From a virus (lineage: Duplodnaviria > Heunggongvirae > Uroviricota > Caudoviricetes), in IMG/VR virus record IMGVR_UViG_3300045988_157791: 64,000 bases of DNA; one strand, 5' to 3'. The position numbers and the translations under genes were made by a program. Shown in pieces: positions 7,702-60,437 of the stretch (its first letter is position 1; each line of letters begins with the position of its first letter). The notes beneath the pieces were generated by a model. That model did no database searches, had not been told where the DNA came from, and saw only the letters and a list, made by a program, of their open reading frames with translations.

Positions 7702-8592
7702 TTATGCCGGTAAAGCAATTTCTAACGGTTTATCCAAAGGTTGTTTGTCGAATGCCAGCAGTGGCAGCGTGTCAGGCAGTCGACGGCCAAAGTCAGGGTT
7801 TCGGTACACACCATACAACGGAGACGTAAAGCTCAGGTTGTGAATGTCCTTGAGCAGCTTCACAATGCTGGCCTCGTCCACCAGACTGTCGGCAATGTCC
7901 TGAATCGTCGTGCCACGATTCCGCCCAGCTTTTGCCAGGGAACTGTTCTTGTGGTAGTCCGCCACCAGATCACGCAGTGCACGGCGACGACGAGACTCGC
8001 TCATAGCGAACAACTCTTTGACGATCGCCTCGTTATCACCCGGGTCGGAGCGGAAATGGCGCTGGAACACACGCAGTGCACTTTCATAGCTCTTCGGTCG
8101 CTCAGGGCGGATGAACTTAAACCCTGCTTTCATGGCGAAGGGATTGTATTTGCTCATCGATGACTGGATCTCAATGATTGGCCGGTCATGCATCCTGCTA
8201 ACCAGGTTAATCATTCGATAAGAGACGCCTACGCCACGATACTGAGTATCCACAACTGAGCGACTGATCACCGCAAAGTTGTTATTCACGTACCGACCCC
8301 AGTACTGGTTAGCCACGGTGGTATTAGTGGTTGGTTTCAACTTAGGAAACATGCGGTGGCGAGGTGCCAGCAGTAGTTTCGGATAAGCCATAACCACGAC
8401 GCCCACCAGACGGTCATCAAGTTCGCAGCGATAGTAAGTTGGCGCGAAAGGTTTGCCGTCTGTTTTGTAGTGAAGCGACTTAAGAGCGTGCCAGTCCTCT
8501 ACAGTTCCCTTTGTGACTGTCATTCGTTCCAGAAAGTCCAGATGACGCGGAAACTCTTCAGGGCGGTAGCGTTTAATGATGATGTCCGTCAT
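7702..8592 (-). CDS. hypothetical protein with GNAT-like motif
   Basis: 296 aa; AVISRSVVDTQYRGVGVSYRMINLV resembles GNAT motif A (R-x-x-G-x-G); weak. Confidence 0.3.
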   Translation of the reverse strand: MTDIIIKRYRPEEFPRHLDFLERMTVTKGTVEDWHALKSLHYKTDGKPFAPTYYRCELDDRLVGVVVMAYPKLLLAPRHRMFPKLKPTTNTTVANQYWGRYVNNNFAVISRSVVDTQYRGVGVSYRMINLVSRMHDRPIIEIQSSMSKYNPFAMKAGFKFIRPERPKSYESALRVFQRHFRSDPGDNEAIVKELFAMSESRRRRALRDLVADYHKNSSLAKAGRNRGTTIQDIADSLVDEASIVKLLKDIHNLSFTSPLYGVYRNPDFGRRLPDTLPLLAFDKQPLDKPLEIALPA

Positions 8593-9254
8593 GAATGGAC
8601 CTCATCATGACTACCATTGTGATATTCCACCTTCACGCGTTCTTTGTAGTGCTTGGTGATCTGCATATCCGGGCGCAGCGCGTTCTTCAGGTCTTCGTGA
8701 GTCGTCGCCACCATTACCGTCGCACCAACCTTTCGAGCGGCACGCTGGAGGTTAGATGCCACAACCTGAGCGGTTACACGGTCTAAAACAGCACCGAACT
8801 CGTCAGCAGCCCACACTTTAGCGCCTGACTCAATCAGTTTGGCAATCTTGAGACGATATTTCTGACCGTCTGACATTTCAGAAGGCTTGCGAACAAACAG
8901 ATATGCATCGTTCAGACCAGCCATAGATAACAATCCAAGCGCATCACTGGTCGTTTTGCCCAACTGATCGATGACGTTAACCTCATTATCGAAGGTAAAA
9001 TCATCGATGGAGGCTACAGACAGCCCTTCATCCTTCATCTGTCGTTGCAACTCGCGCAGCACAACGGATTTGCCGGAACCGGATTGGCCGGTGATGTACA
9101 CCACATCGCCCTGCTTCACTTCCAGCTCCAGATTGTCGTAAAGCGTCCACTCTTTTTCGTCCAGACCAAGCCCGAACGACTCAGCGATTTCCAACGTGCG
9201 CGTGGTTTTATTTACGCGTGTCTGAAACGATACGTTGATGATGTATTTGCTCAT
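8589..9254 (-). CDS. ABC-type ATPase
   Basis: Walker A GQSGSGKS, signature-like MSDGQKYRL, Walker B VWAADEF, H-loop ATTHED; 4-nt overlaps with neighbours. Confidence 0.65.
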   Translation of the reverse strand: MSKYIINVSFQTRVNKTTRTLEIAESFGLGLDEKEWTLYDNLELEVKQGDVVYITGQSGSGKSVVLRELQRQMKDEGLSVASIDDFTFDNEVNVIDQLGKTTSDALGLLSMAGLNDAYLFVRKPSEMSDGQKYRLKIAKLIESGAKVWAADEFGAVLDRVTAQVVASNLQRAARKVGATVMVATTHEDLKNALRPDMQITKHYKERVKVEYHNGSHDEVHS

Positions 9255-21489: not shown

Positions 21490-22059
21490 TTAGTTGTTCA
21501 GATAAACATTTGGAACACGGACGTAGAAGTTCCTGTCGCCGGTAAGTTCCAGAGTAATGTTAATGTCATTACCATTGTCTAGTGTAGCCGTTGCTCTATA
21601 GAACTTATCCGTCACCTTGTCCTCTATTGTCACCTTCATACATTTTGGTGCAGTCGAACCGTTATTCTCTTTCAGAATAGTTGTCACGAGAGGGCAGGCT
21701 GCTTCTTCAAGAGCAACCTCGTCCTTGTGTGGGATGCCGATGAAGATAACCCAAGCCAGCGACGCAACGATTATGATAAATGGCACTCTGCTGCCTTTTG
21801 TAATAGTCGCGCGCTTCCAGAGATAGACAGGCAGGAGGAATACCCCCCATAGAATTGAAGGTGGTTCACAGCCAGACTCCGATAGAGCCATTCTGTCAGC
21901 TACTAACAAACCGATGGTAGTTACACCCCCAATTATAATAGCGTAATTGGTATACTCTTCCGGCGATACTCCAAAGAAGAAAGGCATGAACGCTAGAATC
22001 CACGCATAAATGTTATTCAGAGGTTTTGTTTGTTGGTTCTGGGTTTCCATCACATCCAT
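21490..22059 (-). CDS. putative membrane protein
   Basis: 189 aa with several hydrophobic helices in N-terminal half (AWILAFMPFFFGV, IIIGGVTTIGLLV, ILWGVFLLPVYLW, FIIIVASLAWVIFIG). Confidence 0.45.
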   Translation of the reverse strand: MDVMETQNQQTKPLNNIYAWILAFMPFFFGVSPEEYTNYAIIIGGVTTIGLLVADRMALSESGCEPPSILWGVFLLPVYLWKRATITKGSRVPFIIIVASLAWVIFIGIPHKDEVALEEAACPLVTTILKENNGSTAPKCMKVTIEDKVTDKFYRATATLDNGNDINITLELTGDRNFYVRVPNVYLNN

Positions 22060-22211
22060 TCCATCACATAAAAATCGCGTTTATATATTATCAATTTTCT
22101 CACTTGTATAACCTAAATACGCATCCGTTTATCAATCCACCTTCCACAAACATCAGCTTTAGCTATGAAAAATAACAATCTCAAAGTGAAAACCATTATC
22201 ATAGGAAACGA

Positions 22212-22397
22212 TTAGATGAGATGGTCTAATTCATCATCTATCATTGCTTTAACACTTGAGTCATTAACCCCGTATTGATTTATGAACCGTTTCAGCTCCG
22301 GTGAAAACTGAAGGTAGATATCGTGAGCGTTTTTCACTGTAGGTTCAACGCCACGCATTTCAAGCGCCTTTAGTAGATATGAGTCTTCTTTAAGCAT
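22212..22397 (-). CDS. small hypothetical protein
   Basis: 61 aa ORF downstream of 22434..22742. Confidence 0.3.
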   Translation of the reverse strand: MLKEDSYLLKALEMRGVEPTVKNAHDIYLQFSPELKRFINQYGVNDSSVKAMIDDELDHLI

Positions 22398-22433
22398 AAA
22401 TTCTCCGTTGTCTAGTATGAAGCGATTGCCGGA

Positions 22434-22742
22434 TTACCATTGCCAGCACTCTAGCCCTTCAACGACCGGTGCACCACAATCAAAATGTACAGAGTCAAAG
22501 CCTACATCAAGTACTTTCTGAATGTTCGCAATCGCGCCCTCGGATATACCATATCGACGCAACTCATCTTTCCAGTCATCGTCCTGTAACCCGGCGTGGA
22601 CAATGCAACCGTACTCAATTTGTGAAACCCAATCCAGCTCATTGCTTGCGATCATGAATCGGCGAGCATCTTCCTCTGATGTATGAGATGAGCTGATCAA
22701 TGCCACCTGGTAGGCTTGGGTAATGTTCAACATTTCAACCAC
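22434..22742 (-). CDS. hypothetical protein
   Basis: 102 aa; preceded by conserved block (GATAAT ... GAAAACAACTTGTTTT). Confidence 0.35.
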   Translation of the reverse strand: MVEMLNITQAYQVALISSSHTSEEDARRFMIASNELDWVSQIEYGCIVHAGLQDDDWKDELRRYGISEGAIANIQKVLDVGFDSVHFDCGAPVVEGLECWQW

Positions 22743-22839
22743 TCCAAAACAAGTTGTTTTCTTATGTGGTTTATTATCTCCATCAACAAAAGGCAGAAAA
22801 CAAATTGTTTTAGGTACTGTGTAAATCAGAAGGGATTGT

Positions 22840-22876
22840 GTCTATATGAAAATGCCCGGCGTGTTGCCGGGCATTG
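22840..22876 (-). terminator. intrinsic terminator downstream of metG
   Basis: GCCCGGCAACACGCCGGGC hairpin followed by ATTTTCAT on minus strand. Confidence 0.6.
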
Positions 22877-22894
22877 CGAAGAGAGGTTGTTTAA

Positions 22895-24928
22895 TTACTT
22901 AACCTGGTGGCCAGGTTTAGCACCAGCATCCGGGCTTAACAGGAAGATATCTTTCCCGCCGGGGCCAGCAGCCATCACCATGCCTTCAGAGATACCGAAG
23001 CGCATTTTACGTGGTGCCAGGTTAGCCACCATAATGGTGTGACGACCAATCAGTGCCTGCGGATCCGGGTAGGCAGAACGAATACCGGAGAAGACATTGC
23101 GTTTTTCACCGCCGAGATCCAGTGTCAGGCGCAGCAGTTTGTCAGAACCTTCAACAAACTCTGCGTTTTCGATCAGCGCTACGCGCAGGTCAACTTTGGC
23201 GAAGTCGTCAAAGGTGATGGTTTCCTGAATCGGATCATCTGCCAGTGGGCCAGTAACTGGCGCGGCAGCTGCTTTCACTTCTTCTTTAGACGCTTCCACC
23301 AGTGCTTCAACCTGCTTCATATCGATGCGGTTATACAGTGCCTTGAACGGATTTACTTTATGGCCCAGCAGCGGTTGCTGGATACCATCCCAGGTCAGTT
23401 CTGTATTCAGGAATGCTTCTGCACGTTCAGTCAGTTTCGGCAGTACCGGCTTCAGGTACGTCATCAGCACGCGGAACAGGTTAATGCCCATAGAGCAAAT
23501 CGCCTGCAGATCGGCATCGCGTCCTTCCTGCTTCGCCACCACCCACGGAGCCTGTTCATCGACATAGCGGTTAGCCAGGTCAGCCAGTGCCATGATTTCA
23601 CGGATAGCTTTACCAAATTCGCGGCTTTCCCACGCTTCACCAATCACTTCAGCGGCATCAGTGAAGGTTTTGTACAACTGCGGGTCAGCCAGCTCGCTTG
23701 CCAGCACACCGTCAAAACGCTTATTGATAAAGCCAGCGTTACGGGACGCCAGGTTAACCACTTTGTTCACGATATCGGCATTCACACGCTGAACGAAATC
23801 CTCCAGGTTGAGATCGATATCATCAATGCGCGAAGAGAGTTTCGCAGTGTAGTAGTAACGCAGGCTGTCAGCGTCAAAATGATTCAGCCAGGTGCTGGCT
23901 TTAATAAAGGTGCCGCGAGACTTGGACATCTTCGCGCCGTTCACCGTCACATAGCCATGAACAAACAGGTTGGTCGGCTTGCGGAAGTTGCTGCCTTCCA
24001 GCATGGCAGGCCAGAACAGGCTGTGGAAGTAAACGATATCTTTACCGATGAAGTGGTACAGCTCGGCGGTGGAGTCTTTCTTCCAGTATTCATCGAAGCT
24101 TACGCTGTCGCCGCGCTTGTCGCACAGATTCTTGAAAGAACCCATGTAGCCAATCGGTGCGTCCAGCCAGACGTAGAAATATTTGCCCGGCGCGTTCGGA
24201 ATTTCAAAACCGAAGTAAGGGGCGTCGCGGGAGATATCCCACTGTTGCAGGCCAGATTCAAACCACTCCTGCATTTTATTTGCCACCTGCTCCTGCAACG
24301 CACCGCTGCGGGTCCATGCCTGCAACATTTCGCTGAAAGAGGGCAGATCAAAGAAGAAGTGTTCAGAATCACGCATTACCGGCGTAGCACCAGAAACCAC
24401 CGATTTCGGTTCAATCAGTTCAGTCGGGCTGTAGGTCGCGCCGCAGACTTCACAGTTATCGCCGTATTGATCTGGCGCTTTACATTTCGGGCAGGTGCCT
24501 TTCACAAAACGGTCCGGCAGGAACATGCCTTTTTCCGGATCGTACAGCTGAGAGATGGTGCGGTTTTTAATAAAACCGTTTTCTTTCAGGCGAGAGTAGA
24601 TAAGTTCTGACAACTGGCGGTTCTCTTCGCTGTGCGTCGAGTGATAGTTGTCATAGCTGATGTTAAAGCCTGCGAAATCAGTCTGATGTTCCTGACTCAT
24701 TTCGCCAATCATCTGCTCCGGTGTGATACCAAGCTGCTGAGCTTTAAGCATGATCGGCGTGCCGTGGGCATCGTCGGCGCAGATGAAGTTGACCTCGTGG
24801 CCGCGCATTCGCTGGTAACGGACCCAGACATCAGCCTGGATGTGCTCCAGCATATGGCCGAGGTGGATTGAGCCGTTAGCGTACGGCAGCGCGCACGTCA
24901 CCAGAATTTTCTTCGCGACTTGGGTCAT
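22895..24928 (-). CDS. metG: methionine--tRNA ligase
   Basis: 677 aa from [26 protein letters not shown] (HIGH motif) ... KMSKS ... C-terminal tRNA-binding domain; near-identical to Escherichia MetG as recalled; ORF-track N-terminal 43 aa extension rejected. Confidence 0.95.
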
Positions 24929-25085
24929 AGTAGGCATTACTTCTTTGTAGTGAAAAGGGGCTTGATAGTAACAAAATGGCCTTATGTCTGCCATGTGATA
25001 ACAGCATTTCTCATAAATGATTAAATGTCGTAGCTGGAGTACACTACAAGGCGACAATTGCGCAAATTAAAATAAAGGAGACGGG

Positions 25086-26186
25086 ATGAGCGAGTCCAAA
25101 TCGCCGGATGCCCTGAGAGCAATGGTAGCCGGTACGCTGGCTAATTTTCAGCACCCAACCCTGAAACACAACCTGACTACGCTTAAAGCGTTACACCATG
25201 TTGCGTTGATGGATGACACACTGCATGTCGAACTAATCATGCCTTTCGTGTGGAATAAGCCTTTTGAAGACCTGAAAGAGCAATGTAGTGGTGATCTGCT
25301 CCGTATCACTGGCGCAAAGGCTATTGACTGGAAGCTGTCGTACAACATTGCCACGCTTAAGCGCGTCAAAAACCAACCAGGCATTAATGGCGTTAAGAAC
25401 ATTATCGCCGTCAGCTCAGGCAAGGGCGGCGTAGGTAAATCCTCCACGGCGGTAAATCTGGCACTGGCGTTGGCTGCTGAAGGTGCGAAAGTTGGTATTT
25501 TGGATGCCGATATCTATGGTCCATCAATTCCAACCATGCTGGGCGCGGAAAACCAACGTCCAACCTCACCGGACGGTACTCACATGGCACCTATCATGTC
25601 TCATGGCCTGGCAACCAACTCTATTGGTTATCTGGTCACCGACGACAATGCAATGGTGTGGCGTGGACCGATGGCCAGCAAGGCGCTGATGCAGATGTTG
25701 CAGGAAACTCTATGGCCTGATCTGGACTATCTCGTTCTCGATATGCCGCCGGGCACTGGTGATATTCAGTTGACGCTGGCGCAGAACATTCCTGTAACTG
25801 GTGCGGTTGTGGTAACTACGCCGCAAGACATCGCGCTGATCGATGCGAAGAAAGGCATTGTGATGTTCGAAAAAGTCGAAGTGCCGGTACTGGGTATCGT
25901 CGAAAACATGAGTGTGCATATTTGCAGTAACTGCGGTCATCACGAGCCAATTTTTGGCACCGGTGGCGCACAGAAACTGGCCGAGAAATACAACACGCAG
26001 TTGTTAGGCCAAATGCCACTTCATATCTCTCTTCGTGAAGATCTGGATAACGGAACACCAACCGTTATTAGTCGTCCAGATAGCGAATTTACGGCTATTT
26101 ATCGTGACCTCGCAGATCGCGTTGCTGCCCAAATGTATTGGCAAGGTGAAGTAATACCTGGCGAAATCGCATTCCGCGCAGTGTGA
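25086..26186 (+). CDS. apbC: Mrp/ApbC Fe-S cluster carrier ATPase
   Basis: P-loop SGKGGVGKS, CxxC (CSNCGH); divergent from metG as in the enterobacterial chromosome. Confidence 0.9.
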   Translation: MSESKSPDALRAMVAGTLANFQHPTLKHNLTTLKALHHVALMDDTLHVELIMPFVWNKPFEDLKEQCSGDLLRITGAKAIDWKLSYNIATLKRVKNQPGINGVKNIIAVSSGKGGVGKSSTAVNLALALAAEGAKVGILDADIYGPSIPTMLGAENQRPTSPDGTHMAPIMSHGLATNSIGYLVTDDNAMVWRGPMASKALMQMLQETLWPDLDYLVLDMPPGTGDIQLTLAQNIPVTGAVVVTTPQDIALIDAKKGIVMFEKVEVPVLGIVENMSVHICSNCGHHEPIFGTGGAQKLAEKYNTQLLGQMPLHISLREDLDNGTPTVISRPDSEFTAIYRDLADRVAAQMYWQGEVIPGEIAFRAV

Positions 26187-26214
26187 TAAAAAGGCGGTGC
26201 AATGCACCGCCTAA
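26186..26214 (-). terminator. hairpin terminator between apbC and UmuD'-like gene
   Basis: GGCGGTGCAATGCACCGCC; on minus strand followed by TTTTTATC. Confidence 0.5.
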
Positions 26215-26223
26215 TCAGTTCTC

Positions 26224-26613
26224 CTACATCACGGGACAATCATCAAACTCGCCACTTCTTGCGTCGTTGATAATGTGAGTGATCACACCAAACACGGCAT
26301 TGCTGCCCGTGCATCCATCGTCATCCTTTGGCAATGCTTCCTTCTTACCGGTTCTTAAATCCTCCAGATGCTGACGTGGGTACTTCCGGTATCTTTTTAC
26401 GCGATATTCCCCATCCAGAGCGCATACAAGCAGAGAACCATCAACTGGGGTAAGTGAGGAATCAACCACCAGCAATGCACCCTGTAATATTCCCTCACGA
26501 TGATGACTATCAGCTGCCCGCATGAAGTAGGTCGCTGAAGGATGTCTGATTAGTTGCTGATCAAGAGAAATACGGCTCTCTGCATAATCCGCCGCAGGAG
26601 AAGGGAAGCCCAT
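26224..26613 (-). CDS. UmuD'-like protein (natively lacks the UmuD N-terminal arm; HumD-type)
   Basis: Starts M-GFPSPAADY, i.e. at the position of the UmuD Cys24-Gly25 cleavage site; in-frame TAA 9 nt upstream prevents extension; S24 peptidase-fold C-terminal domain. Confidence 0.6.
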   Translation of the reverse strand: MGFPSPAADYAESRISLDQQLIRHPSATYFMRAADSHHREGILQGALLVVDSSLTPVDGSLLVCALDGEYRVKRYRKYPRQHLEDLRTGKKEALPKDDDGCTGSNAVFGVITHIINDARSGEFDDCPVM

Positions 26614-26712
26614 AGCGTTTTACCTCAATGATACTGTTTATTCATACAGTATACATTGAAAAGGCATAGTTTGTGAAAGCGGGGTTTGCAGGCGCGCCAC
26701 GCTGGGGGCTAA

Positions 26713-27063
26713 TCACATTGGTGGCGTGAACTTGCCATTCATATATTGCAAAATGCTTGACTCAATTTTTTCATTAAAATCAGAATGATGCTCCTCAAGG
26801 ACAAAGCGCGCCTTATTGTTGCGCACAATAACCTCCGCCAACGGACTAACCAGAGATGTGGAGTTAGAGATTTTCTCGGCGCGCTCTACATCGCTTTTAA
26901 ACGTTACGATGAAGTGCTGGTGGCCTGGTGACCGGCGACACAACATGCGTCGCACTTCCACGGTATCTTCACGGCCTTGAGTATGTACAGGAAAGCTATC
27001 GACCACCGCTGTATTGGTGCGGATTGTCTGCATAGAACGCGTGTTGTCGTGATAGTTAAGCAT
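26713..27063 (-). CDS. hypothetical protein
   Basis: ORF track 26713..27105; start uncertain (ATG 27063 has best RBS). Confidence 0.3.
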   Translation of the reverse strand: MLNYHDNTRSMQTIRTNTAVVDSFPVHTQGREDTVEVRRMLCRRSPGHQHFIVTFKSDVERAEKISNSTSLVSPLAEVIVRNNKARFVLEEHHSDFNEKIESSILQYMNGKFTPPM

Positions 27064-27088
27064 GTTTAATGTCTTCCCCATCTTGCCG

Positions 27089-27340
27089 TTATTTTCTTGG
27101 TGCATCCTCGTTCTGATACACCGGATGGCTTCCTTTTGGCAACTGGAGGCTTAACTGCCGGTAGTGCCGTAACCGTTCCATGAAATAGGTGCGCAGGTTC
27201 TCTGGTTGCTCGCGGGCTACCTGTTCAGCTATGACAGGTATGTTCAATCGCTCTTTGTACGCCACACCGCTGGCAGCCAGATCAACGTTAACCTTATCCC
27301 GTTCTTCCTGACTTTTAGCTGCAATATTCCAGTCGCTCAT
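27089..27340 (-). CDS. DNA polymerase III theta subunit homologue (HolE/Hot-like)
   Basis: [43 protein letters not shown] closely parallels HolE ([43 protein letters not shown], from memory). Confidence 0.65.
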
Positions 27341-27342
27341 AT

Positions 27343-27615
27343 TTAAGGCTCACATTTCCAGATGGTATTCTGAACACCCGAACCGGGCGCAAGATTAGGG
27401 TTAGCGTTCGCGCTATGCTGATATACTGCTTTAGACTTCCCATATTGCTGACAGGCTTTATCTGCGGTTTTTTGCAGGCTATCCAGGCCATACCAACCAT
27501 CTGACTGTATGCTTACCTTTTCACCGTCGTTGTATTGCACCATTGCACACCCAGATATAGCCAGTATCGCGCCGACAATAACGCTTTTCCATAAAACTCT
27601 ATGCAACATATACAA
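27343..27615 (-). CDS. small putative lipoprotein
   Basis: Signal peptide + lipobox AILAISG-C. Confidence 0.4.
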
Positions 27616-27654
27616 AAATCCCCTCTGTGAATTGAGGGGATTTTAGCATGGTGA

Positions 27655-28413
27655 TCAGATATCGGCCTTATTCGGAATTTTATCAGCCACCAGCGGCAAT
27701 AAAGCCTTCGCCATTTCATGAACCAACATGGCATCAATGACGCCTAGCGTATGGACCGGCTTAATCTTTAATGCGGCCTCAAGATAGCCTCTTTCCAGAG
27801 TGGTTTTTACGCTTTTCTTGGGCGATTGTTGGGAACTATCCGGAAAATCCGGATGGTTGCCAGCCAGTCTACGCAAAACGGCCTTAACAGCCTCAATACG
27901 GTCATCATCAACTTTTTCTACAATATTGGAATTTAAATACTTCGAAGCCTTGCTATGCCAATCGCTGGTTTTAGGGTCTTGTCCATCCATCAAACGCCAA
28001 GCTTCAGCGATTAACTCATAGCCAGTAACAGTGGCTTCCTGCGCATCACCAATCAGTTGTGTGATCTCTCTTTCAAGCATGCTTAGAGCGTTAGGCATTG
28101 GTTTTTCTTCCGGTACTACTGGCACTGGAGGGGCGGCGTATACTTCAATTGTCCCATTATCAATAGGCCATTCTCCATCCTTGAGGTAGTCACTTGTGCC
28201 GTCAACTTGCTGTTCTGCAATGTGGAATGCACCTATTGGTTTTGCCTCAAGCGAGGCCAGTGCAATTCGTGCCAGTTTTAGATCTCGTGCAACCATCTCA
28301 ATAACAACTTTGCAGTCCGCACCTTCTTTACTAACACGTCCTTTCAAGTCTTCCAGATAACTAACGCTTTCGCGTGCATGGGAGATTAACTGTTCTTTGG
28401 TTAAGGTGGTCAT
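27655..28413 (-). CDS. hypothetical protein
   Basis: 252 aa ORF, coupled to downstream small gene. Confidence 0.4.
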   Translation of the reverse strand: MTTLTKEQLISHARESVSYLEDLKGRVSKEGADCKVVIEMVARDLKLARIALASLEAKPIGAFHIAEQQVDGTSDYLKDGEWPIDNGTIEVYAAPPVPVVPEEKPMPNALSMLEREITQLIGDAQEATVTGYELIAEAWRLMDGQDPKTSDWHSKASKYLNSNIVEKVDDDRIEAVKAVLRRLAGNHPDFPDSSQQSPKKSVKTTLERGYLEAALKIKPVHTLGVIDAMLVHEMAKALLPLVADKIPNKADI

Positions 28414-28598
28414 TAGGCAGCTCTCTCAACAACAAGCAATTCGTCGTAGTCATAATCCGTTTCGGAACCATCCGTACCGAACAGAGTCACTTTGTCACCT
28501 TCCATCCAGAAAGATTTAACCGCACATCGTTTGCCTTTAGATGTTATGACCACATCACCTTGGGTTACATCTTCAGCGCGAACTTCTACTGTTCTCAT
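28413..28598 (-). CDS. small hypothetical protein
   Basis: ORF track 28413..28634; probable start MRTVEVRAEDV. Confidence 0.3.
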   Translation of the reverse strand: MRTVEVRAEDVTQGDVVITSKGKRCAVKSFWMEGDKVTLFGTDGSETDYDYDELLVVERAA

Positions 28599-29139
28599 AA
28601 TGCTGACCCTCTTTGGTGAAAACGCCTGATGCAATACTGTTTATGATGCTGTCAGTACAGGGAGTAGAAAGCTGGGCATCTCCAGCTATTTTCATGACTT
28701 CGACATTCGCATATCGAATACCGAGGTGTATCAGACCTGCTATACCTGACTTAAGTCGAACATTTTCCATAAACAGATCCTTTTCCCGCTGTTTAACGGT
28801 CTCCAGCTCAACACGCAGTTTCTCAAGCGTTAGGGCCATCTCTACGTTCTCCTGCTCAAGACGTCGGATGTGTTGCTGTCTTTTATCCAGTTCGTCCAGC
28901 AGTGCAATCACATCGGGATCACTATCATCAACTACTGTTACGCGTGATTTTTCATAATGTTCATCTGCAAAAGTACGCCCTATCTTAAAATATCCGTCAT
29001 CACTCTCACCGGAACAGGCATAAACAACATGTGCTCCAGATATGCGCTGTATTGACATTTCCTCGCCACAAACAGAGCATTTAGGCGCTGGTTTTGGTGA
29101 ATAACGTTCACGTAACGTCAGGTAGTAAATCTCATTCAC
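28573..29139 (-). CDS. hypothetical Zn-ribbon/coiled-coil protein
   Basis: CSVCGEE...YACSGE cysteine pairs at N-terminus, central coiled coil. Confidence 0.35.
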   Translation of the reverse strand: MNEIYYLTLRERYSPKPAPKCSVCGEEMSIQRISGAHVVYACSGESDDGYFKIGRTFADEHYEKSRVTVVDDSDPDVIALLDELDKRQQHIRRLEQENVEMALTLEKLRVELETVKQREKDLFMENVRLKSGIAGLIHLGIRYANVEVMKIAGDAQLSTPCTDSIINSIASGVFTKEGQHYENSRSSR

Positions 29140-29591
29140 TGTTTATTTCCTGTACGAAGCTCAGCGGCAAAAGCTACTGCGTGATCATGATGTTCAAGTG
29201 TGTATGCGCACTCAGCAAACATCTCCACGCCCTGCGCACGTACTTCAGCCAGAAAAGCATCGGTGGCTGGAGTCTCCGTTAATTCGCTAACCCAATTATC
29301 TCCGTGTTCCTCGGCACACATCGCATCGAATGCTCGCTCAGATTCTTTCAGGGCTGCATTCTCCGCCGCTAATGCGTCTCTCTGCGCCCGCAACTTCTCA
29401 ATTTCAGCAGCCATGTAGTAACCAACCATAGCGAAGACGGCAAAAGAGTTGTCTGCCTCATCAGGCGACACTGAGGCCATTAGCAGGCCATCGTAAAAAT
29501 CGTGACTCCCATTGGTGATCGCCACCGCATAGGAGTCGTGGTTCTCGCGCTTGTGAATGAGAACTACGGGATTTTCGATTTTGTTACTCAT
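29136..29591 (-). CDS. hypothetical protein
   Basis: 151 aa; start context AGAGAAAAACACATG shared with many genes here. Confidence 0.35.
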   Translation of the reverse strand: MSNKIENPVVLIHKRENHDSYAVAITNGSHDFYDGLLMASVSPDEADNSFAVFAMVGYYMAAEIEKLRAQRDALAAENAALKESERAFDAMCAEEHGDNWVSELTETPATDAFLAEVRAQGVEMFAECAYTLEHHDHAVAFAAELRTGNKQ

Positions 29592-29729
29592 GTGTTTTTC
29601 TCTTCTTTGCTGTTACATAAGCACTACCAAGTGCTGGTTTATTTTCACAAATAAGAAAATGTAGAAAACAATTTATTTAAGGCCATAAGTCATGGCCTTT
29701 ATTTATTCATGCAGAAGGATTTGTAGCGC

Positions 29730-30110
29730 CTAATTGCCGTATAAAATGGGTTGAGGCGCTTGCCAGTAAGCTCCACCGTCCCATGTGAACCCCATGCGAA
29801 TAAGAGTGTTTATTGCGGCTTTGGTAGACTCTGATTCGACGCTGACTTTTCGAAACTCTTGAACCTCTTTCGCCAACTTGTATGTAATTGTGCAGGGGAC
29901 GATTGCAGCCCAGCCTTTCTCATGACTGTTAATGACCATCTGGATGTGACCATCCAGAATAGGTTGATCAGGCATGTTATTGAAAACGTCTGCCTGTTTT
30001 TGAATGTGAAGAAAAAGCCTTGCCAGCTCCATTTGCTCACTACGAGACAAGGGATTATCAAGAGGGCTTTTTGCAAAAGCGGCTATACGCTGTGCGTCAA
30101 TGCCAAACAT
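29730..30110 (-). CDS. hypothetical protein
   Basis: 126 aa ORF. Confidence 0.35.
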   Translation of the reverse strand: MFGIDAQRIAAFAKSPLDNPLSRSEQMELARLFLHIQKQADVFNNMPDQPILDGHIQMVINSHEKGWAAIVPCTITYKLAKEVQEFRKVSVESESTKAAINTLIRMGFTWDGGAYWQAPQPILYGN

Positions 30111-30814
30111 CAGCGCACCTCACCATCTTTATGGCTGGAGTTAACTTCCGTCATTAAATGTCTGACGTAATCGACAAGAGAGCCGCCTGGTGGAATCTGG
30201 CATTCCTCAACTAACTGGAAGTAGATATCCGCTGCATTACGTGTATTGCTACCCGCGCATATTCTTTCTTCCCGAAGTGCATGAAGCTCGTTGATCAAAC
30301 GGTCACACTCTCCGTTACGCTGATCCACAACAGCCTCAAGTTCTGCGACGCGTTCACCTGGCGTCTTACCTTCTTTGCGTTGGATGGTAACGACGAAATC
30401 GCCAATTGCAGGGACGTTGTAATCCAGCTCAAGGTAGTTTTTGGCACCGCTGCGGACGAACTCACCCGCGAACATGGTGGCGAACATCGCAGAGGCCACT
30501 TCGCCGTTGAAAAGTGACTCCAGATCTAACGGAGTCCCGGCATCAAGAGCCTCTTTTGCTGTATCCATTGCATCCATGAACCGATCAAACTCATTGGCGC
30601 GCTTTTCCAAGTTTTTCCATTGCTCGCTCCAACGTTTGGCAACGAAGTCTATGAATGTTTTCGCGGATTCATCAAAATCCCCCTCAAACTTAACGATGCC
30701 TTTATCAATAATGATCTGGCCTACCGCATCCTCTGCATAACCTTTCAATGTAAACTTGAAAGGAAAATCAGAATGGCCTGTGACGTTAAAATGCTCTAAC
30801 TGGAGGTTGTTCAT
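30110..30814 (-). CDS. hypothetical protein
   Basis: 234 aa; conserved start context. Confidence 0.4.
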   Translation of the reverse strand: MNNLQLEHFNVTGHSDFPFKFTLKGYAEDAVGQIIIDKGIVKFEGDFDESAKTFIDFVAKRWSEQWKNLEKRANEFDRFMDAMDTAKEALDAGTPLDLESLFNGEVASAMFATMFAGEFVRSGAKNYLELDYNVPAIGDFVVTIQRKEGKTPGERVAELEAVVDQRNGECDRLINELHALREERICAGSNTRNAADIYFQLVEECQIPPGGSLVDYVRHLMTEVNSSHKDGEVR

Positions 30815-30875
30815 GTGTTTTTCTCTTATCGTTTAGTAACTACATTCTTACACAAATTAGGTAAGTATTTACCTA

Positions 30876-32561
30876 TCATTTAACGCGTTTGAAAACGTAT
30901 ACGCTGACTGTGATCCCTGTGTCTTCAAACTCGTTGGTAAACGACTTCCCTCTGGCATAAACGTAATTATCCATCGTCATCCAGTCCAGTATTGGCGCAG
31001 TGCCCGGCAATACTGCTACAAGACGCCCGCCGACTTTCAGATGCCCCAGCGCAGCCAGCGTGTGCTCTCTATGACGACCAAGCGAGTACGGCGGGTTCAT
31101 AACGATTTTGTCGAACTGATAACCTACGTTGTCCTCAGACCACTTTATGAAGTCGCAGCAAATCGTGTTCGTATACCCTTTTCCGCGCAGGATATCAGCG
31201 AAGAGAGGTGCGATTTCTATGCAGGTAACATCTTCCAGATCGGCGTTGATATAGGCCAGAAGATCCCCACGTCCGGCTTGAGGCTCCAGCAGCTTCTCAC
31301 CAGACTTCAATTCAGTGGCTCTGGCAACGTACTCAGCAATCAAGCGTGGGGTAGGGTAGAACTGGTGTGATTTTGTATCCGGTATTAATCCGGTAGCCAC
31401 AATCGTATTTAGCGTATGGCCGATCTCATACGGGAACTGCCAGTGCTTTTTCTCCTGCACGCCGCCAATGAAGCTCAGTGTGCGCTCAAGCTCTTCCACC
31501 TGCGACTTCTGGAGAGCTGAATCAGAGAAGTACCATACGCCTTTGTCTTTGCTTAATCGCCCGTCACGAAGCGCAGTGCGAACCGGCACGGAGATCGTCT
31601 TCTGGATTAACCCGAACTGCTTTGGTGCCCGTGTTTTTGGCGCGGTGCGACATGGCGCGGGGATTGCAGCAGGCATACTGTAAGCCAGCACCTCATTCAA
31701 CTTCCAGGCCACGTCAGGATGTATTTCAAAGTGAACGTTGCCGTTCTTGAACATCTTCACGCGCATTAGATTTCCATCGACGTTCATCCAGTCACCGGTC
31801 TGGCAGTCGTTTGCCCGATACGCAGCTGATAGCACCTCAGCAGTGCGGTTGATGGTAATAAATTCTTTGTGCGCGAAGAAATGAAGCAAGACACGCAGAT
31901 CGTCGATATAGTCCTCTTTGCGATAGTTCACACTAACGCTGTCCCGCCAGAAATCAGAAATGCAGTCAGCGATTATCAGACGTTCGCTGAAACCGTTTGT
32001 CTTATTTGTCTTGTGCGCAGGACTCAGCGCCTTAAACAAGCCATACACGCGCTCAGAGAGATATTTGTGCCTGTCATTCAGCAAATTAAGCATCGTGGGT
32101 ATGACCGTTTCTGCTTTGAACTCCGGTACACCAACGAACTCTTTAACCTTCATCTGGTAGCCGGTTCTGTCAGTTTTGATGACTTCCTGTTTGCCCTCTA
32201 TAAACTGCTCGCGCCACTCATCTCGACGGGAAGCTGGCATGATCAGCAAAACGTTAGTCATGTCCGTGACCTTCCTCCAGTACTCGGCCCAAATATTCTG
32301 TTTCACCCATTCCAGATCGACTTTATCCAACCAACCTCGATTTAAACGCGAGCGATCTTCATCTGGTCGATGGTTTAGTCTCAGCAGGCGATTAATCATG
32401 TTGTGGCGTTCGTCGCCATAAACGAAGTCGTGTACCTGATACATGAAGGCGATCTCTTTCTCGCACTCGGCCACAATTTCGTGGATGACGTTCATTTCCT
32501 GCCGATAGTCGATAGCAGTGTTTGAGTTGGCATCGTCGATGATGGAAAGGGCTGTATTCAT
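30876..32561 (-). CDS. DNA methyltransferase (NPPY motif) with ~400 aa N-terminal domain of unknown function
   Basis: C-terminal region has AdoMet motif I-like EPQAGRGDL and motif IV VMNPPYS; N-terminal two-thirds unassigned. Confidence 0.55.
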   Translation of the reverse strand: MNTALSIIDDANSNTAIDYRQEMNVIHEIVAECEKEIAFMYQVHDFVYGDERHNMINRLLRLNHRPDEDRSRLNRGWLDKVDLEWVKQNIWAEYWRKVTDMTNVLLIMPASRRDEWREQFIEGKQEVIKTDRTGYQMKVKEFVGVPEFKAETVIPTMLNLLNDRHKYLSERVYGLFKALSPAHKTNKTNGFSERLIIADCISDFWRDSVSVNYRKEDYIDDLRVLLHFFAHKEFITINRTAEVLSAAYRANDCQTGDWMNVDGNLMRVKMFKNGNVHFEIHPDVAWKLNEVLAYSMPAAIPAPCRTAPKTRAPKQFGLIQKTISVPVRTALRDGRLSKDKGVWYFSDSALQKSQVEELERTLSFIGGVQEKKHWQFPYEIGHTLNTIVATGLIPDTKSHQFYPTPRLIAEYVARATELKSGEKLLEPQAGRGDLLAYINADLEDVTCIEIAPLFADILRGKGYTNTICCDFIKWSEDNVGYQFDKIVMNPPYSLGRHREHTLAALGHLKVGGRLVAVLPGTAPILDWMTMDNYVYARGKSFTNEFEDTGITVSVYVFKRVK

Positions 32562-39190: not shown

Positions 39191-39748
39191 TTACACAATT
39201 TCAGAGGGTAATTTAAAAAATCCGTACTTATTACGTGCCTTAAAGAAGCATTGCATCATTAAGTTTGTGTCATATAAGGCACTATGTGCTTTGGCATGAT
39301 CGTATATAAAGCCAAGAGAGAAGGCCAACTCTTCAAGGCGGGGACGTTTACCGTCTTCTGTGGCCCACAATCCCGATAACATAGTATCTATAACAGGAAC
39401 TTCTGGCAGTCTTACTCCATACCCTGAAAACTCGTGTCGAATAAATGGTATATCAAATGCTTCGCCGTTATGAGCAACCCACACACTACATGCCCCCATA
39501 TAAGCGCCAATTTCGCTGGCATGATTTGACAACAAAGGTTCAGCTGCGAGCTGTTCCAATGAAATGCCATGAACGGCTTGAGCTTTCGGATCTATGTTTC
39601 TGCGAGGGTTAAAACGCATCTCCAGACTATCAATATGTCTCTGTGTCTCCAGTTCATAGCGGGTAATTGCGATTTCAATAATTTTATGACCAGCAAGGAA
39701 ATCCAGTCCCGTAGACTCGATATCGATGCCTGCAACAATCGTTGTCAT
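39191..39748 (-). CDS. DnaQ-like (DEDDh) 3'-5' exonuclease
   Basis: Exo I GIDIESTG, Exo II HNGEAFDIPF, Exo III H...ALYD. Confidence 0.6.
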   Translation of the reverse strand: MTTIVAGIDIESTGLDFLAGHKIIEIAITRYELETQRHIDSLEMRFNPRRNIDPKAQAVHGISLEQLAAEPLLSNHASEIGAYMGACSVWVAHNGEAFDIPFIRHEFSGYGVRLPEVPVIDTMLSGLWATEDGKRPRLEELAFSLGFIYDHAKAHSALYDTNLMMQCFFKARNKYGFFKLPSEIV

Positions 39749-40238: not shown

Positions 40239-40883
40239 CTAATGAACGGTCACTCGGCCACAGAACCGGTTTTCTATCTTTTCTACAGCGTTATCTAGCA
40301 TTCTCATCACTGATCTGGCTCTTGCTTCAACCGTGCGATATCGGTTGGAAACGACGAAGGTTTGCAGATCTCCCCTTTGCGGATGCAGGTGAATTTTTGT
40401 CAGTTCCCCGCACATCAACGCATCAATACGAGCGACATACAGACGGTCTAATGATGCTCGTTGTGATCGCAAGTAATCTCGCTCTGAGAGAGCGACTCCC
40501 GGGCGTAAGCCAGCAATGGCGTTAAAGTTTGAAATAGCAGTTTTGTGGCAAAACTTTTCGATATCGAGGGCTAACTCAATACACCGATCTTCATTTGTAT
40601 GGCCGACCAAATCCAACGTGTAGGCCATAACATCAGCAGGTGTGCGATCGATAACAAAGCCTTCAACACCACGCGTAAGTAGCTCTATATGCTTTGCTAT
40701 TTCCATTTGAATCTGAAGCCGCTCATATAGAGGCATAGAATCACCTACTCGAACACCGAGGCGGCTCATCAAACTTCCGACACCAGCATCCACGTAAGGG
40801 ATTCCGTAATGTTTGTCGATATATTTAGCCAGGGTTGTTTTCCCACTGCCCTGAGCACCAGTGATCCCAATCCGGTAATCCAT
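40239..40883 (-). CDS. P-loop NTPase, putative nucleoside/nucleotide kinase
   Basis: Walker A GITGAQGSGKTTLAK at N-terminus; context among nucleotide-metabolism genes. Confidence 0.45.
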   Translation of the reverse strand: MDYRIGITGAQGSGKTTLAKYIDKHYGIPYVDAGVGSLMSRLGVRVGDSMPLYERLQIQMEIAKHIELLTRGVEGFVIDRTPADVMAYTLDLVGHTNEDRCIELALDIEKFCHKTAISNFNAIAGLRPGVALSERDYLRSQRASLDRLYVARIDALMCGELTKIHLHPQRGDLQTFVVSNRYRTVEARARSVMRMLDNAVEKIENRFCGRVTVH

Positions 40884-41359
40884 TACGACCTTCTGTATAC
40901 GATCTGCGAAAAGCCAGGCTCTTCCTCGCTGGCTCGTTGGGTATAAGCTGTTTCAACAGGCACAAAGCCTAAATTACGCATCATGCTTGCCGGGAAGAAT
41001 GCATCGGCGTTTGGCACATCAACGCCGATGTGGGAGAGCCAAATCTCTTCAACATGCGGCATGAATAGCGAGTAAATTTGTTCCCCGCCAATCACCCACA
41101 CAGGCTCTGGTAATCGCAACACATCATCCACACCAGCAGGGTAGAATCCATTTGGTACAAAGCCATGAGAGCGCGTCAAAACGAGGTTATGACGCTCTGG
41201 AAGAGGGCGTTTGAGACTTTCCATCGTTTTACGCCCCATAACGACAGTGGCGTTTTTGGTGAGTCTCTTAAATAGCTTCAGATCGGTAGAACAACGCCAG
41301 GGGAGTTCATTCGCTATGCCGATCTCATAGTTACGGCCAACAGCAGCGATCATCTTCAT
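40883..41359 (-). CDS. folA: dihydrofolate reductase
   Basis: 158 aa; MIAAVGRNYEIG..ELPW, VVMGRKT.ESL..PLP.R, VWVIGGEQIY match DHFR pattern. Confidence 0.75.
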   Translation of the reverse strand: MKMIAAVGRNYEIGIANELPWRCSTDLKLFKRLTKNATVVMGRKTMESLKRPLPERHNLVLTRSHGFVPNGFYPAGVDDVLRLPEPVWVIGGEQIYSLFMPHVEEIWLSHIGVDVPNADAFFPASMMRNLGFVPVETAYTQRASEEEPGFSQIVYRRS

Positions 41360-41817
41360 TTGCTCACCTCATAGATGACCGGTCGATGGTGAGAGTCGGC
41401 TAAAGCGGCACGGAGTCGAGGATCGTGCACCAGCGCAGCGATAAGCAGATCGCCTTTATGCTCCGCTAATGTGCGCTTAATATGCTTCTCATAACTGGTG
41501 CCATTCGGTACGAGATGAAGCCAGTCATAATCAACGCCAAAATCTTTCAGCCATCGTTTAGTTGGCGCTTCAAGAGTTTCAGAGCGGCTACTGATAAGCA
41601 CCACTTCAGCCCCTGAGCGAGCAAAACCACGCAACATACGGCTGGTGGGGAAAATGAGTTCATCACCGGCAATGAGCTGGCCTGCATCCGCGTCAGATAC
41701 TGATTTACGATGGCTGGCATTTGCCAGCACACCTTCAATTTCGCATAAGACATACATACCTCTTGCCATATCACACCGCCACTGGAACCTTGATCCACGA
41801 TAGAGGGTCATAGCCAA
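41356..41817 (-). CDS. HAD-like fold protein with atypical motif I (tentative)
   Basis: VVLISSRSE, K, GDLLIAALVHD resemble HAD motifs II-IV but motif I reads CEIEG instead of DxDG. Confidence 0.3.
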   Translation of the reverse strand: MAMTLYRGSRFQWRCDMARGMYVLCEIEGVLANASHRKSVSDADAGQLIAGDELIFPTSRMLRGFARSGAEVVLISSRSETLEAPTKRWLKDFGVDYDWLHLVPNGTSYEKHIKRTLAEHKGDLLIAALVHDPRLRAALADSHHRPVIYEVSK

Positions 41818-58099: not shown

Positions 58100-59173
58100 T
58101 TACTCTTCTACTGACTCGGTGGGGTTGTCTTTTGCTCTTCGGTCGTCGATTGCCTGCAAAGCCGCAATGATTTCAGCCAGTGGCTTCTCCCGATACATCT
58201 CAACGATCTGCGATTTGGTGTATTTCTTGTCACCAATTTCAACTCGCCCGCTGGCGTTCTTTGGCAGGTATCCTTCTTCCAGCATGTACTCGACGAGCGA
58301 TTCGATAACGTCGAGGCCACGAGTAGGATCGAAGTAGAATTTCCAGGTGCATTTGCCATACGGTGGTGCAACTTTGTTTTTGATGCATTCTGCGCCTACG
58401 TCCTGGCCGATCTTCTCTTTACCATCCTTCATCACCGATGCACCAAGACGGATACGTACAGAAGCGTAGAACTTCGGTGAATCTCCACCTGGCGACGTAG
58501 TAGGGTCGCCAAACATTACACCGATTTTTGTGCGAACCTGATTCAAGAAGATGATGCAGGCGTTGTATTTGCGTGCCCACAAAGCCAGAGTAGGGAAGTT
58601 CGCACTCGTCGCACGAGCCAGTGCCGTATTGTCGTTCATGTTTAGCTGATCTTTGTCTTTGGCAGTGCCTTCAGCCATCTTTTCGAACTTCTCGGCTTTG
58701 GAGTTCGGAACCATAGACGCAAGAGAGTCAGCCACGATACAGATAGGTGCTGATTCGGGGATAAGCTCTTCATCACGAACCAATTTAAGTATTGTGCCGA
58801 TCAACTCTACAGAGTCTTCGAAGGTATCTGGCTGCTTGTATACCCACTGACCGTCATCCTCATCTGCGTTCAGGCCATTGGCTACAGCCAGGCCAACGTC
58901 AAAACTGTTTTCATGATCGAGGAATACCGCCAGACCATCTTGTTTTTGAGCGGAGATCATCGCTGCTGTTGCAAGGAACGTTTTCCCTGCACTTGGAGGA
59001 CCGAATACTTCGACGATACGACCACATGGGAAGCCGCCATCGTAACGACCAGAAATAGCTTTGTTTAACGGTGGAAAGCCTGTATCAATCCAATGAGTTA
59101 CTTTCTGAATTTCGTCGTTGCTACCGATTTTCTTTTTCAGAGCAAGTGCCAGTGCGGATTTTCCTTTTGCCAT
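58100..59173 (-). CDS. RecA-family recombinase
   Basis: Walker A GPPSAGKT; IFLNQVRTKIGVMFGDPTTSPGGDSPKFYASVRIRL parallels RecA [36 protein letters not shown]. Confidence 0.7.
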   Translation of the reverse strand: MAKGKSALALALKKKIGSNDEIQKVTHWIDTGFPPLNKAISGRYDGGFPCGRIVEVFGPPSAGKTFLATAAMISAQKQDGLAVFLDHENSFDVGLAVANGLNADEDDGQWVYKQPDTFEDSVELIGTILKLVRDEELIPESAPICIVADSLASMVPNSKAEKFEKMAEGTAKDKDQLNMNDNTALARATSANFPTLALWARKYNACIIFLNQVRTKIGVMFGDPTTSPGGDSPKFYASVRIRLGASVMKDGKEKIGQDVGAECIKNKVAPPYGKCTWKFYFDPTRGLDVIESLVEYMLEEGYLPKNASGRVEIGDKKYTKSQIVEMYREKPLAEIIAALQAIDDRRAKDNPTESVEE

Positions 59174-59175
59174 GA

Positions 59176-59448
59176 TCAGGCTCCTTTTGTTTCGTTGATT
59201 CGTTTTAAAGCGGCGGATTCATCGAATACAATCGCATCGTGGTTAAGGAGTCTGGATACACGAGCGAGGATTTTTACGACCTGCTCGCTGACTAATCCAA
59301 ACTCGCGATCTGTCGCTTTCATTCCGGCAGCGCCTAGAATTGACGGCAGTGCGATGACAGCGTACTCACCGTGATAAAAGACAATCTCTTTTGCCAGTTG
59401 GGCAGGGGTGGTTGTAGCGCCATTGATAATCGATTTAAGCATTAGCAA
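59176..59448 (-). CDS. small hypothetical protein
   Basis: 90 aa ORF between flap-endonuclease and RecA-like genes. Confidence 0.3.
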   Translation of the reverse strand: MLMLKSIINGATTTPAQLAKEIVFYHGEYAVIALPSILGAAGMKATDREFGLVSEQVVKILARVSRLLNHDAIVFDESAALKRINETKGA

Positions 59449-60437
59449 TACCTTTCGAATGGAAGAACAAACACTTCAAGGTCTTCAAGGAACGAACGGA
59501 AATTCAGCTCGTAGCACAGTTGCTCGAATGCTTTCACGTCACGATTGCCTTTGATTGTTTCGATTTCGGTAGGCGGAAACTTCGTCTCAATCAGGTTCAT
59601 TAGCGTGATGTTTCTCTTGAACGCTTCGAGCATTCGACAGCCTGTTTTCTCGTTGAAGGCATTCTTCGCTAGTTTGTTGAAGGCGGTCTTATGACGCCCT
59701 TTATTAACCACGATTGAGCCGTCGTTGATGCCGCGTACCATCGTTGCGACACTTCCCCATTCATGCAGCAGCTCTTTCGCACCGCCAGCACCAATGCCAC
59801 CAACACCGCTAATGTTGTCCGAGTTATCGCCTTGTAATGCTTTTGCTTCCAAAAATGCGCGAGGCGTGGCGAATCCTGTCAGCTCCGCAAATTGCTCAAA
59901 ATTAACCTGCTTGTTTTTGGCGTCTTCACGCAGGCTTACCCAGCTTACGTTTTCACGAACTAACTGAAGCCAGTCGCTATCGCCTGTTAACAGATAGATG
60001 TGTTCAACGGTTGGCTGCGGTGCCATGCGGGATACCAGCAGCCCGGCCAGATCATCCGCTTCTGCATCTTTTGCAATGAGTTGGGTAACTCCAAGCGCGG
60101 TCATCATTTTGAGGATGTATGGCTTCTGGATAGCAAAGCCTTCCTTCATCTTTTTCATATCAGGATCGTCGTCGCGATTTGCTTTGTAGTCCGGGTAAAA
60201 GTCGCGACGCTTGTCACTAAATCCATCCCAAAGAATCATAGGTCGGGCATGGAGGATGGAGGCATAACGACGGACGTTCTTAACAAAGCCGAAAGCAGCC
60301 TGTACTTCCATTTCGCCGTTGTGCAATTTGTCAGATTGTTGGTGGTAATAACCCAGGCTATTGCCATCTACGAAGAGATAATTCACCGGTACATTCCTTC
60401 CAAAAAGTAAGGCGTCCGTAGACGCCTTACTGGTCAC
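59442..60437 (-). CDS. 5'-3' exonuclease / flap endonuclease
   Basis: N-terminal LFVDGNSLGYY, central TGDSDWLQL, GDNSDNISGVGGIGAGGAKELL typical of Pol I-type 5' nuclease. Confidence 0.7.
   Translation of the reverse strand: MTSKASTDALLFGRNVPVNYLFVDGNSLGYYHQQSDKLHNGEMEVQAAFGFVKNVRRYASILHARPMILWDGFSDKRRDFYPDYKANRDDDPDMKKMKEGFAIQKPYILKMMTALGVTQLIAKDAEADDLAGLLVSRMAPQPTVEHIYLLTGDSDWLQLVRENVSWVSLREDAKNKQVNFEQFAELTGFATPRAFLEAKALQGDNSDNISGVGGIGAGGAKELLHEWGSVATMVRGINDGSIVVNKGRHKTAFNKLAKNAFNEKTGCRMLEAFKRNITLMNLIETKFPPTEIETIKGNRDVKAFEQLCYELNFRSFLEDLEVFVLPFERYC

Follow-up and report, generated by a model that had tools for sequence, protein, structure and literature searches.

In the title of a 1999 paper by McLenigan et al., cited in PMC4713147 and PMC7092418, the P1 protein HumD (humD, P1_gp103) is characterized as functionally homologous to UmuD'-like proteins and as facilitating SOS mutagenesis. 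A second P1 protein, Hot, binds the exonuclease domain of the host epsilon subunit and can stand in for theta in stabilizing epsilon; a crystal structure of the epsilon186:HOT complex is available (PMC2528190, PMC3664792). P1 is a phage without a polymerase of its own, and its Hot protein acts on the epsilon of the host (PMC2528190). P1 hot is reportedly expressed during lysogeny as well as during the lytic cycle (Chikova and Schaaper 2007, as cited in PMC7556043). The genes are arranged in P1 in the order hot, lxr (on the opposite strand), LexA-binding site, humD, phd and doc, and the hot-lxr-humD segment is reported to vary strongly among P1-like phage-plasmids (PMC9603915). HumD and Hot have been characterized genetically and structurally in P1, and curated models and RefSeq already name these genes.

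The locus analyzed here is located in a 64 kb stretch of viral DNA, referred to as the window. As judged from its sequence, it is an already known system, namely the P1 HumD/Hot pair on another phage-plasmid backbone. The window humD shares with its P1 counterpart the product length of 129 aa, a start at the equivalent of UmuD Gly25, the motif AADSHH, a LexA box upstream and the lack of an adjacent umuC. Differences occur in the surroundings: P1 humD adjoins phd/doc, whereas the window humD adjoins apbC on an SSU5-like siphovirus phage-plasmid, and the stop codon upstream of the start is TGA at -15 in P1 but TAA at -9 in the window. In a DNA alignment of both regions hot, humD and the LexA box with the ribosome-binding region are conserved, whereas the central gene is replaced. 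On plasmids with 99.9% identity, the RefSeq label is 'HumD family translesion DNA polymerase' (or 'S24 family peptidase') for humD and 'DNA polymerase III subunit theta' for hot. The features of the locus are compiled in Table 1.

Table 1. Features of the humD-hot locus and DNA-metabolism genes of the window discussed in the text.
Feature	Position	Strand	Description	Basis
Hairpin (G+C-rich), then T run	26192..26212	minus	between convergent apbC and humD; 9 pairs, 7 of them G-C	
humD	26224..26613	minus	129-aa pre-truncated UmuD' homologue, HumD family	NF051876, phrog_811, identity to P1 HumD
Shine-Dalgarno GAGG, then in-frame TAA	26626-26623 (GAGG), 26622-26620 (TAA)	minus	TAA 9 nt before humD ATG	sequence reading
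LexA (SOS) box (predicted)	26632..26651		TACTGTATGAATAAACAGTA (minus-strand reading)	consensus match
Sigma-70-type promoter (predicted)	26648..26677	minus	TTCACA-18-TATACT; -10 overlaps the LexA box	10/12 consensus positions
orf116	26713..27063	minus	between humD and hot, function not assigned; holds the place of lxr in P1	
hot	27089..27340	minus	83-aa DNA polymerase III theta homologue	PF06440, NF008207, identity to P1 Hot
orf90	27343..27615	minus	small protein with lipoprotein-type signal (..AILAISGC)	phrog_7757 (function not assigned), E 1.4e-52
DnaQ-like gene	39191..39748		DEDDh 3'-5' exonuclease, 185 aa	PF00929, 79.4 bits
recA homologue	58100..59173		RecA homologue	PF00154, 145.8 bits

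The phage-plasmid

By comparison with complete plasmids, the window belongs to a ~110 kb SSU5-like E. coli phage-plasmid that has its own metG and apbC. The 10 kb segment from 22000 to 32000 is 98.8% identical to plasmid p2 of E. coli E03, which is circular and comprises 109,854 bp. This plasmid harbors genes for terminase, portal, major capsid, tape measure and tail fibre together with repA and ParB, a set of DNA-metabolism genes (nrdAB, the thymidylate synthase gene thyA, dfrA51 and genes for RNase HI, DNA ligase, a DnaB-like helicase and dnaE) and four tRNAs. Thus the characteristics of the SSU5-like type, a circular molecule of ~110 kb, siphovirus structural genes, repA/par and a large DNA-metabolism set, were all found via E03 plasmid p2. 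Another member of this type is Cyrano from E. coli LF82, an SSU5-like siphoviral element that is induced by genotoxic stress and in which an apbC homologue is among the genes expressed in lysogeny (PMC9928086).

A chromosomal prophage located beside metG/apbC, as these two neighbors might suggest, was rejected as the source of the window because both genes are plasmid-borne copies: the 22000-32000 segment is nearly identical to a circular 110 kb plasmid, and the 3' end of apbC is only about 81-83% identical to the chromosomal copy. Adjoining humD, the phage-plasmid carries apbC/mrp and metG, the latter encoding a full-length methionyl-tRNA synthetase, at 22895-26186.

The sequence-only reading had listed RecA-like and DnaQ-like proteins for this element, and both were recovered by profile searches (Table 1).

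The UmuD'-like protein

The product of humD begins with MGFPSPAADY, as read from the open reading frame. It matches NF051876, the NCBIfam equivalog model for the HumD family, over residues 1-129 of 129 with 219.7 bits; this profile has 129 positions and a curated cut-off of 120 bits. Further matches were obtained with Pfam Peptidase_S24 and with phrog_811 (UmuD-like). The model for UmuD proper (NF007621) gave only 87.9 bits, below its cut-off of 110, and the cleavable N-terminal arm is absent. The nearest solved structures are those of UmuD' (1UMU, 1I4V) and UmuD, and the alignment starts with residue 1 of UmuD'. Compared with E. coli UmuD the protein shows 43-45% identity in tblastn and phmmer alignments whose starting point, UmuD residue 25, corresponds to the N-terminus of UmuD'; the tblastn alignment covers UmuD residues 25-139 at 43% identity. 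The S24 peptidase fold is shared with E. coli UmuD and UmuD'. In relation to UmuD, however, the first 24 residues and the Cys24-Gly25 cleavage site are missing, and the window protein has a 4-residue insertion and a C-terminal extension of 10 residues.

The protein shares 119 of 129 residues (92%) with P1 HumD and differs from it by ten amino acid substitutions. The corresponding genes are 86% identical, so that the identity of the protein exceeds that of the DNA. This difference between protein and humD DNA lends support to purifying selection on humD and hot. Orphan UmuD'-like proteins of about 129 aa that are 62-71% identical over their full length also occur in the temperate phages N15 (gp26), phiKO2 (Gp23), HK140, HK639 and BTP1.

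The sequence-only reading had proposed that the UmuD-like frame starts right after the UmuD cleavage site, behind an in-frame stop located 9 nt upstream, and that the protein is therefore made directly in the UmuD' form. The alignments, which begin at UmuD Gly25, agree with the first point, and the TAA codon is present at the expected place before the ATG. The in-frame upstream translation reads ...YE*TVSLR*NAM, with stops 9 and 27 nt before the ATG. Owing to these two stops, an alternative upstream start that would provide humD with a UmuD arm can be ruled out. Translation thus starts at the residue equivalent to Gly25 and at the size of UmuD', with neither arm nor cleavage site, and the protein would be produced directly in the UmuD' form, as had been suggested.

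Unlike E. coli umuD, the window humD is not organized in an operon with umuC. A tblastn search of the window and the complete E03 plasmid with E. coli UmuC revealed no UmuC or other Y-family polymerase, hidden or otherwise, the best match (E 0.72) being located in the plasmid; the claim that the window encodes no UmuC was therefore upheld. The annotation of the complete E03 plasmid does not list a Y-family polymerase either.

Predicted SOS control of humD

The predicted LexA box upstream of humD is the sole site in the 64 kb with three or fewer mismatches to the 20-nt consensus, a level that was reached by no site in shuffled sequences. It is also the sole CTGT-N8-ACAG site in the window, and in an alignment it coincides with the LexA-binding site that is annotated upstream of P1 humD. 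As suggested by the predicted box and its homology to the P1 site, humD would be controlled by LexA. The hairpin and T run downstream of humD likely represent the terminator of this gene, as predicted only from a consensus match, and the stretch between orf116 and humD yielded no terminator prediction. With a LexA box positioned over the promoter -10 and a hairpin followed by a T run downstream, humD resembles a single-gene SOS unit.

The theta homologue and neighboring genes

The presence of a theta (HolE)-like protein near humD, as claimed in the sequence-only reading, is well supported. The hot product reached 116.5 bits with PF06440 (DNA_pol3_theta; cut-off 34.6) and 104.7 bits with the NCBIfam theta model NF008207 (cut-off 97). 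It is identical to P1 Hot, for which structures have been solved alone and with epsilon186 (PDB 1SE7, 2IDO), at 76 of 83 positions (92%, E 1.3e-46), and residues 5-69 could be aligned with E. coli theta (1DU2; E 1.7e-19). Both Hot proteins comprise 83 aa, and the differences between them are confined to residue 2 and to the C-terminal tail (residues 72-82). E. coli HolE belongs to the same Pfam family, but the window Hot is nearer to P1 Hot than to HolE, from which it differs by a longer, dissimilar C-terminal tail. The similarity to UmuD and HolE thus holds in pairwise comparison, and each of the two proteins is 92% identical to its P1 counterpart.

The arrangement of the genes differs from what had been read initially. 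The UmuD-like and the theta-like genes were said to lie two genes apart, and elsewhere side by side within 26224-27340; this interval spans three genes, and a single one, orf116, separates humD from hot. The longest open reading frame of orf116 extends over 26713..27105 and encodes 130 aa, but all homologues begin at its Met15. Thus, the gene probably corresponds to 26713..27063 and encodes 116 aa. Compared with its family, orf116 is shortened at the C-terminus, and the usual partner gene is missing.

On the other side of hot, only 2 nt separate the stop codon of orf90 from the hot ATG, so that orf90 is probably co-translated with hot. A hairpin at 27615-27644 is located directly upstream of orf90. 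The late promoter LPhot of P1 is not conserved upstream of the window hot, which instead follows this small lipoprotein-like reading frame.

Predicted function of HumD and Hot

The two genes are very probably phage-plasmid orthologues of P1 humD and hot that have a P1-type arrangement on an SSU5-like element and whose products, by analogy, act as the P1 proteins do. As in P1, humD would be repressed by the LexA protein of the host. After DNA damage and inactivation of LexA, humD would be transcribed and translated straight to the UmuD'-sized form, without the need for RecA-mediated self-cleavage. HumD would then dimerize and associate with UmuC, giving rise to a Pol V-like translesion polymerase; the UmuC of the host is the proposed partner because the element has none of its own. 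The hot gene would be transcribed as part of the unit upstream, probably along with orf90, and Hot would bind the N-terminal exonuclease domain of host epsilon (DnaQ) in place of theta and thereby stabilize epsilon. An action on translesion synthesis and proofreading of the host had already been suggested from the sequence, and it would fit the literature on the P1 proteins (PMC7092418; PMC2528190). In contrast to P1, the closest complete relative has a DnaE of its own, and a DnaQ-like exonuclease and RecA are encoded in the window; the partners of Hot and HumD could therefore differ from those in P1.

A LexA-inducible activator of Pol V on common clinical E. coli plasmids could affect stress-induced mutagenesis, for instance under fluoroquinolones.

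The protease site and born-truncated UmuD' homologues

The protease site of the window HumD had been called degenerate in the sequence-only reading, based on AADSHH in place of GDSM. This comparison is right, as the window protein lacks the Gly of the GDSM region and has His in place of Met, and the catalytic dyad is lost in most members of the clade to which the protein belongs. In the window HumD itself, however, the equivalents of UmuD Ser60 and Lys97 are both kept, as S36 and K73.

The retained dyad could point to another role, in which HumD mainly modulates SOS or RecA, for instance by binding of RecA filaments, by formation of heterodimers with host UmuD or by trans-cleavage of host UmuD, and thus affects induction or survival of the phage-plasmid. 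It would be in line with this that the element carries its own RecA. P1 HumD is reportedly poorly expressed and is said to bind RecA filaments in vitro. The relative Cyrano is inducible by genotoxic stress (PMC9928086).

As a test for constraint on the dyad, the conservation of the site was assessed in related proteins. From a search of 1.84 billion cluster representatives, 23 diverged full-length born-truncated proteins were aligned with nine full-length UmuD-type proteins. All 23 born-truncated proteins begin with M-[G/A/S]-F where UmuD has Gly25. The same one-residue gap removes the Gly of GDSM in 20 of them, and a Gly at this position is found in none (0/23). Ser and Lys are both kept in only two of the 23, namely in the cluster of P1 and the window and in a close relative. 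GDSM and Lys are present in seven of the nine full-length UmuD-type proteins, and an eighth shows GHSM together with Lys. This indicates that the protease chemistry is not a conserved property of the born-truncated clade. The decay of the dyad in the diverged proteins of the HumD type fits a dispensability of self-cleavage after genetic removal of the arm, and this chemistry would evidently no longer be required once the arm is lost in this way. At 50% identity, the born-truncated UmuD' homologues fall into at least 23 clusters that make up a broad clade, and almost all of these clusters have lost the Ser/Lys dyad.

A main role of HumD in modulation of SOS and RecA is therefore unlikely. It also conflicts with the conservation of the part of UmuD' that faces UmuC, and with the report that P1 HumD complements UmuD' function (McLenigan et al. 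1999, by its title as cited in PMC4713147).

Mosaic structure of the locus

Any match to the locus was detected in 744 of 5426 complete E. coli genomes, mostly on plasmids. The apbC-humD junction that is typical of the SSU5-like backbone was present in 203 of these 5426 genomes, and the whole arrangement of humD, orf116, hot and orf90 in 16. Among E. coli elements of this backbone, the hot segment thus occupies the apbC-humD site in 16 of 203 (~8%). The position of humD beside apbC is the common state, and humD is a stable backbone gene of SSU5-like phage-plasmids. Cyrano and pMRY16-002_2 contain metG, apbC and humD, but the genes upstream differ and hot is absent at the locus; a Hot homologue was not detected in the whole Cyrano record.

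Pairwise BLAST comparisons revealed a mosaic joint at about 26660. The segment 25000-26660 is 97.4% identical to the SSU5-like Cyrano and pMRY16-002_2. The adjacent segment, from 26661 to about 27900, is missing from both and matches phd/doc plasmids of ~92-93 kb (orf116 97-100%) as well as P1 (hot 93%). The window HumD represents the allele of the SSU5 backbone, with 99% identity to Cyrano HumD, whereas the orf116 and hot alleles belong to the P1/D6 type. This pattern is most simply explained by a recombination between co-resident phage-plasmids with a crossover in the conserved region of humD and the LexA box. A P1/D6-type segment containing orf116, hot and orf90 would have been recombined into an SSU5-type backbone just upstream of the backbone humD and its LexA box. 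The pair is also found on SSU5-like phage-plasmids, with hot as an occasional recombinational import from P1/D6-type elements. This import is an example of gene exchange between two families of phage-plasmids with E. coli as a common host.

The proximity of humD and hot goes back to common descent with P1-type regions and is thus not independent evidence of a functional coupling; the two genes would stand together because they were inherited together. A coupling read from the adjacency is unsupported, as phage HK639 and Klebsiella phage Kp4864-1 also encode a theta homologue, which is located far from the UmuD'-like gene. The adjacency is a feature of the P1 type.

Given its sporadic occurrence, the segment with hot, orf116 and orf90 might be neutral recombination cargo that hitch-hikes in the element and has no selected role there. 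Only ~8% of the backbone relatives carry it, orf116 is shortened at its C-terminus and lacks its usual partner gene, and the region is highly variable also in P1-like phage-plasmids (PMC9603915). However, hot is intact, its product has kept 92% identity with P1 Hot, and the trio of hot, orf116 and humD recurs in at least two plasmid backbones. It is hence rather improbable that the segment is mere cargo.

Polymerase genes of the element

The element differs from P1 in its replication genes. A polymerase gene, as known from the closest complete relative, and an exonuclease gene are present here, and both are absent from P1 (PMC2528190). For the DnaQ-like exonuclease of the window, the closest solved structure is that of E. 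coli epsilon (E 8e-11). The protein ends at residue 185 and is devoid of the C-terminal alpha-binding segment of epsilon.

Hot could accordingly serve as the theta subunit of a Pol III-like core of the element itself, formed by the plasmid DnaE and the 185-aa DnaQ-like exonuclease, rather than act in the replisome of the host. In favor of this, genes for DnaE, a DnaB-like helicase and a ligase are found on the closest complete plasmid, and the window provides an epsilon-like DEDDh exonuclease, a gp32-like SSB and RecA. On the other hand, hot is found at this site in only 16 of the 203 backbone elements and is absent at the locus in Cyrano and pMRY16-002_2. As it is missing from most backbone relatives, Hot cannot be an obligatory subunit. 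Moreover, the exonuclease is distant from epsilon and lacks the alpha-binding segment (PMC2528190), and the window Hot is 92% identical to a P1 protein that acts on host epsilon. The carriage of hot in ~8% of the elements, the missing alpha-binding tail and the near-identity to P1 Hot make a dedicated theta of the element very unlikely. The most extended version, in which this minority of SSU5-like phage-plasmids has a self-contained fidelity and mutagenesis toolkit, with the acquired Hot completing a DnaE/exonuclease/theta core and the pre-activated HumD working with the RecA of the element so that the phage-plasmid sets its own replication error rate without dependence on the host, is likewise very unlikely. 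The host proteins UmuC and epsilon are the favored partners of HumD and Hot.

Additional genes

Further genes for DNA metabolism were observed in the window, encoding a 5'-3' exonuclease (59442-60437) and a T4 gp32-like SSB (60447-61475). The gene dfrA51 is carried by SSU5 and was recently described on SSU5-type phage-plasmids (PMC12217456). In the window, this gene for a trimethoprim-resistant dihydrofolate reductase would be expected at ~40880-41360, a position derived only from the annotation at 8131-8607 of the E03 plasmid. A run of small early genes of the lambdoid type is located at 28413-30110, and its content varies among related phage-plasmids. It includes a gene for an Ead/Ea22-like protein at 28573-29139 (PF13935).
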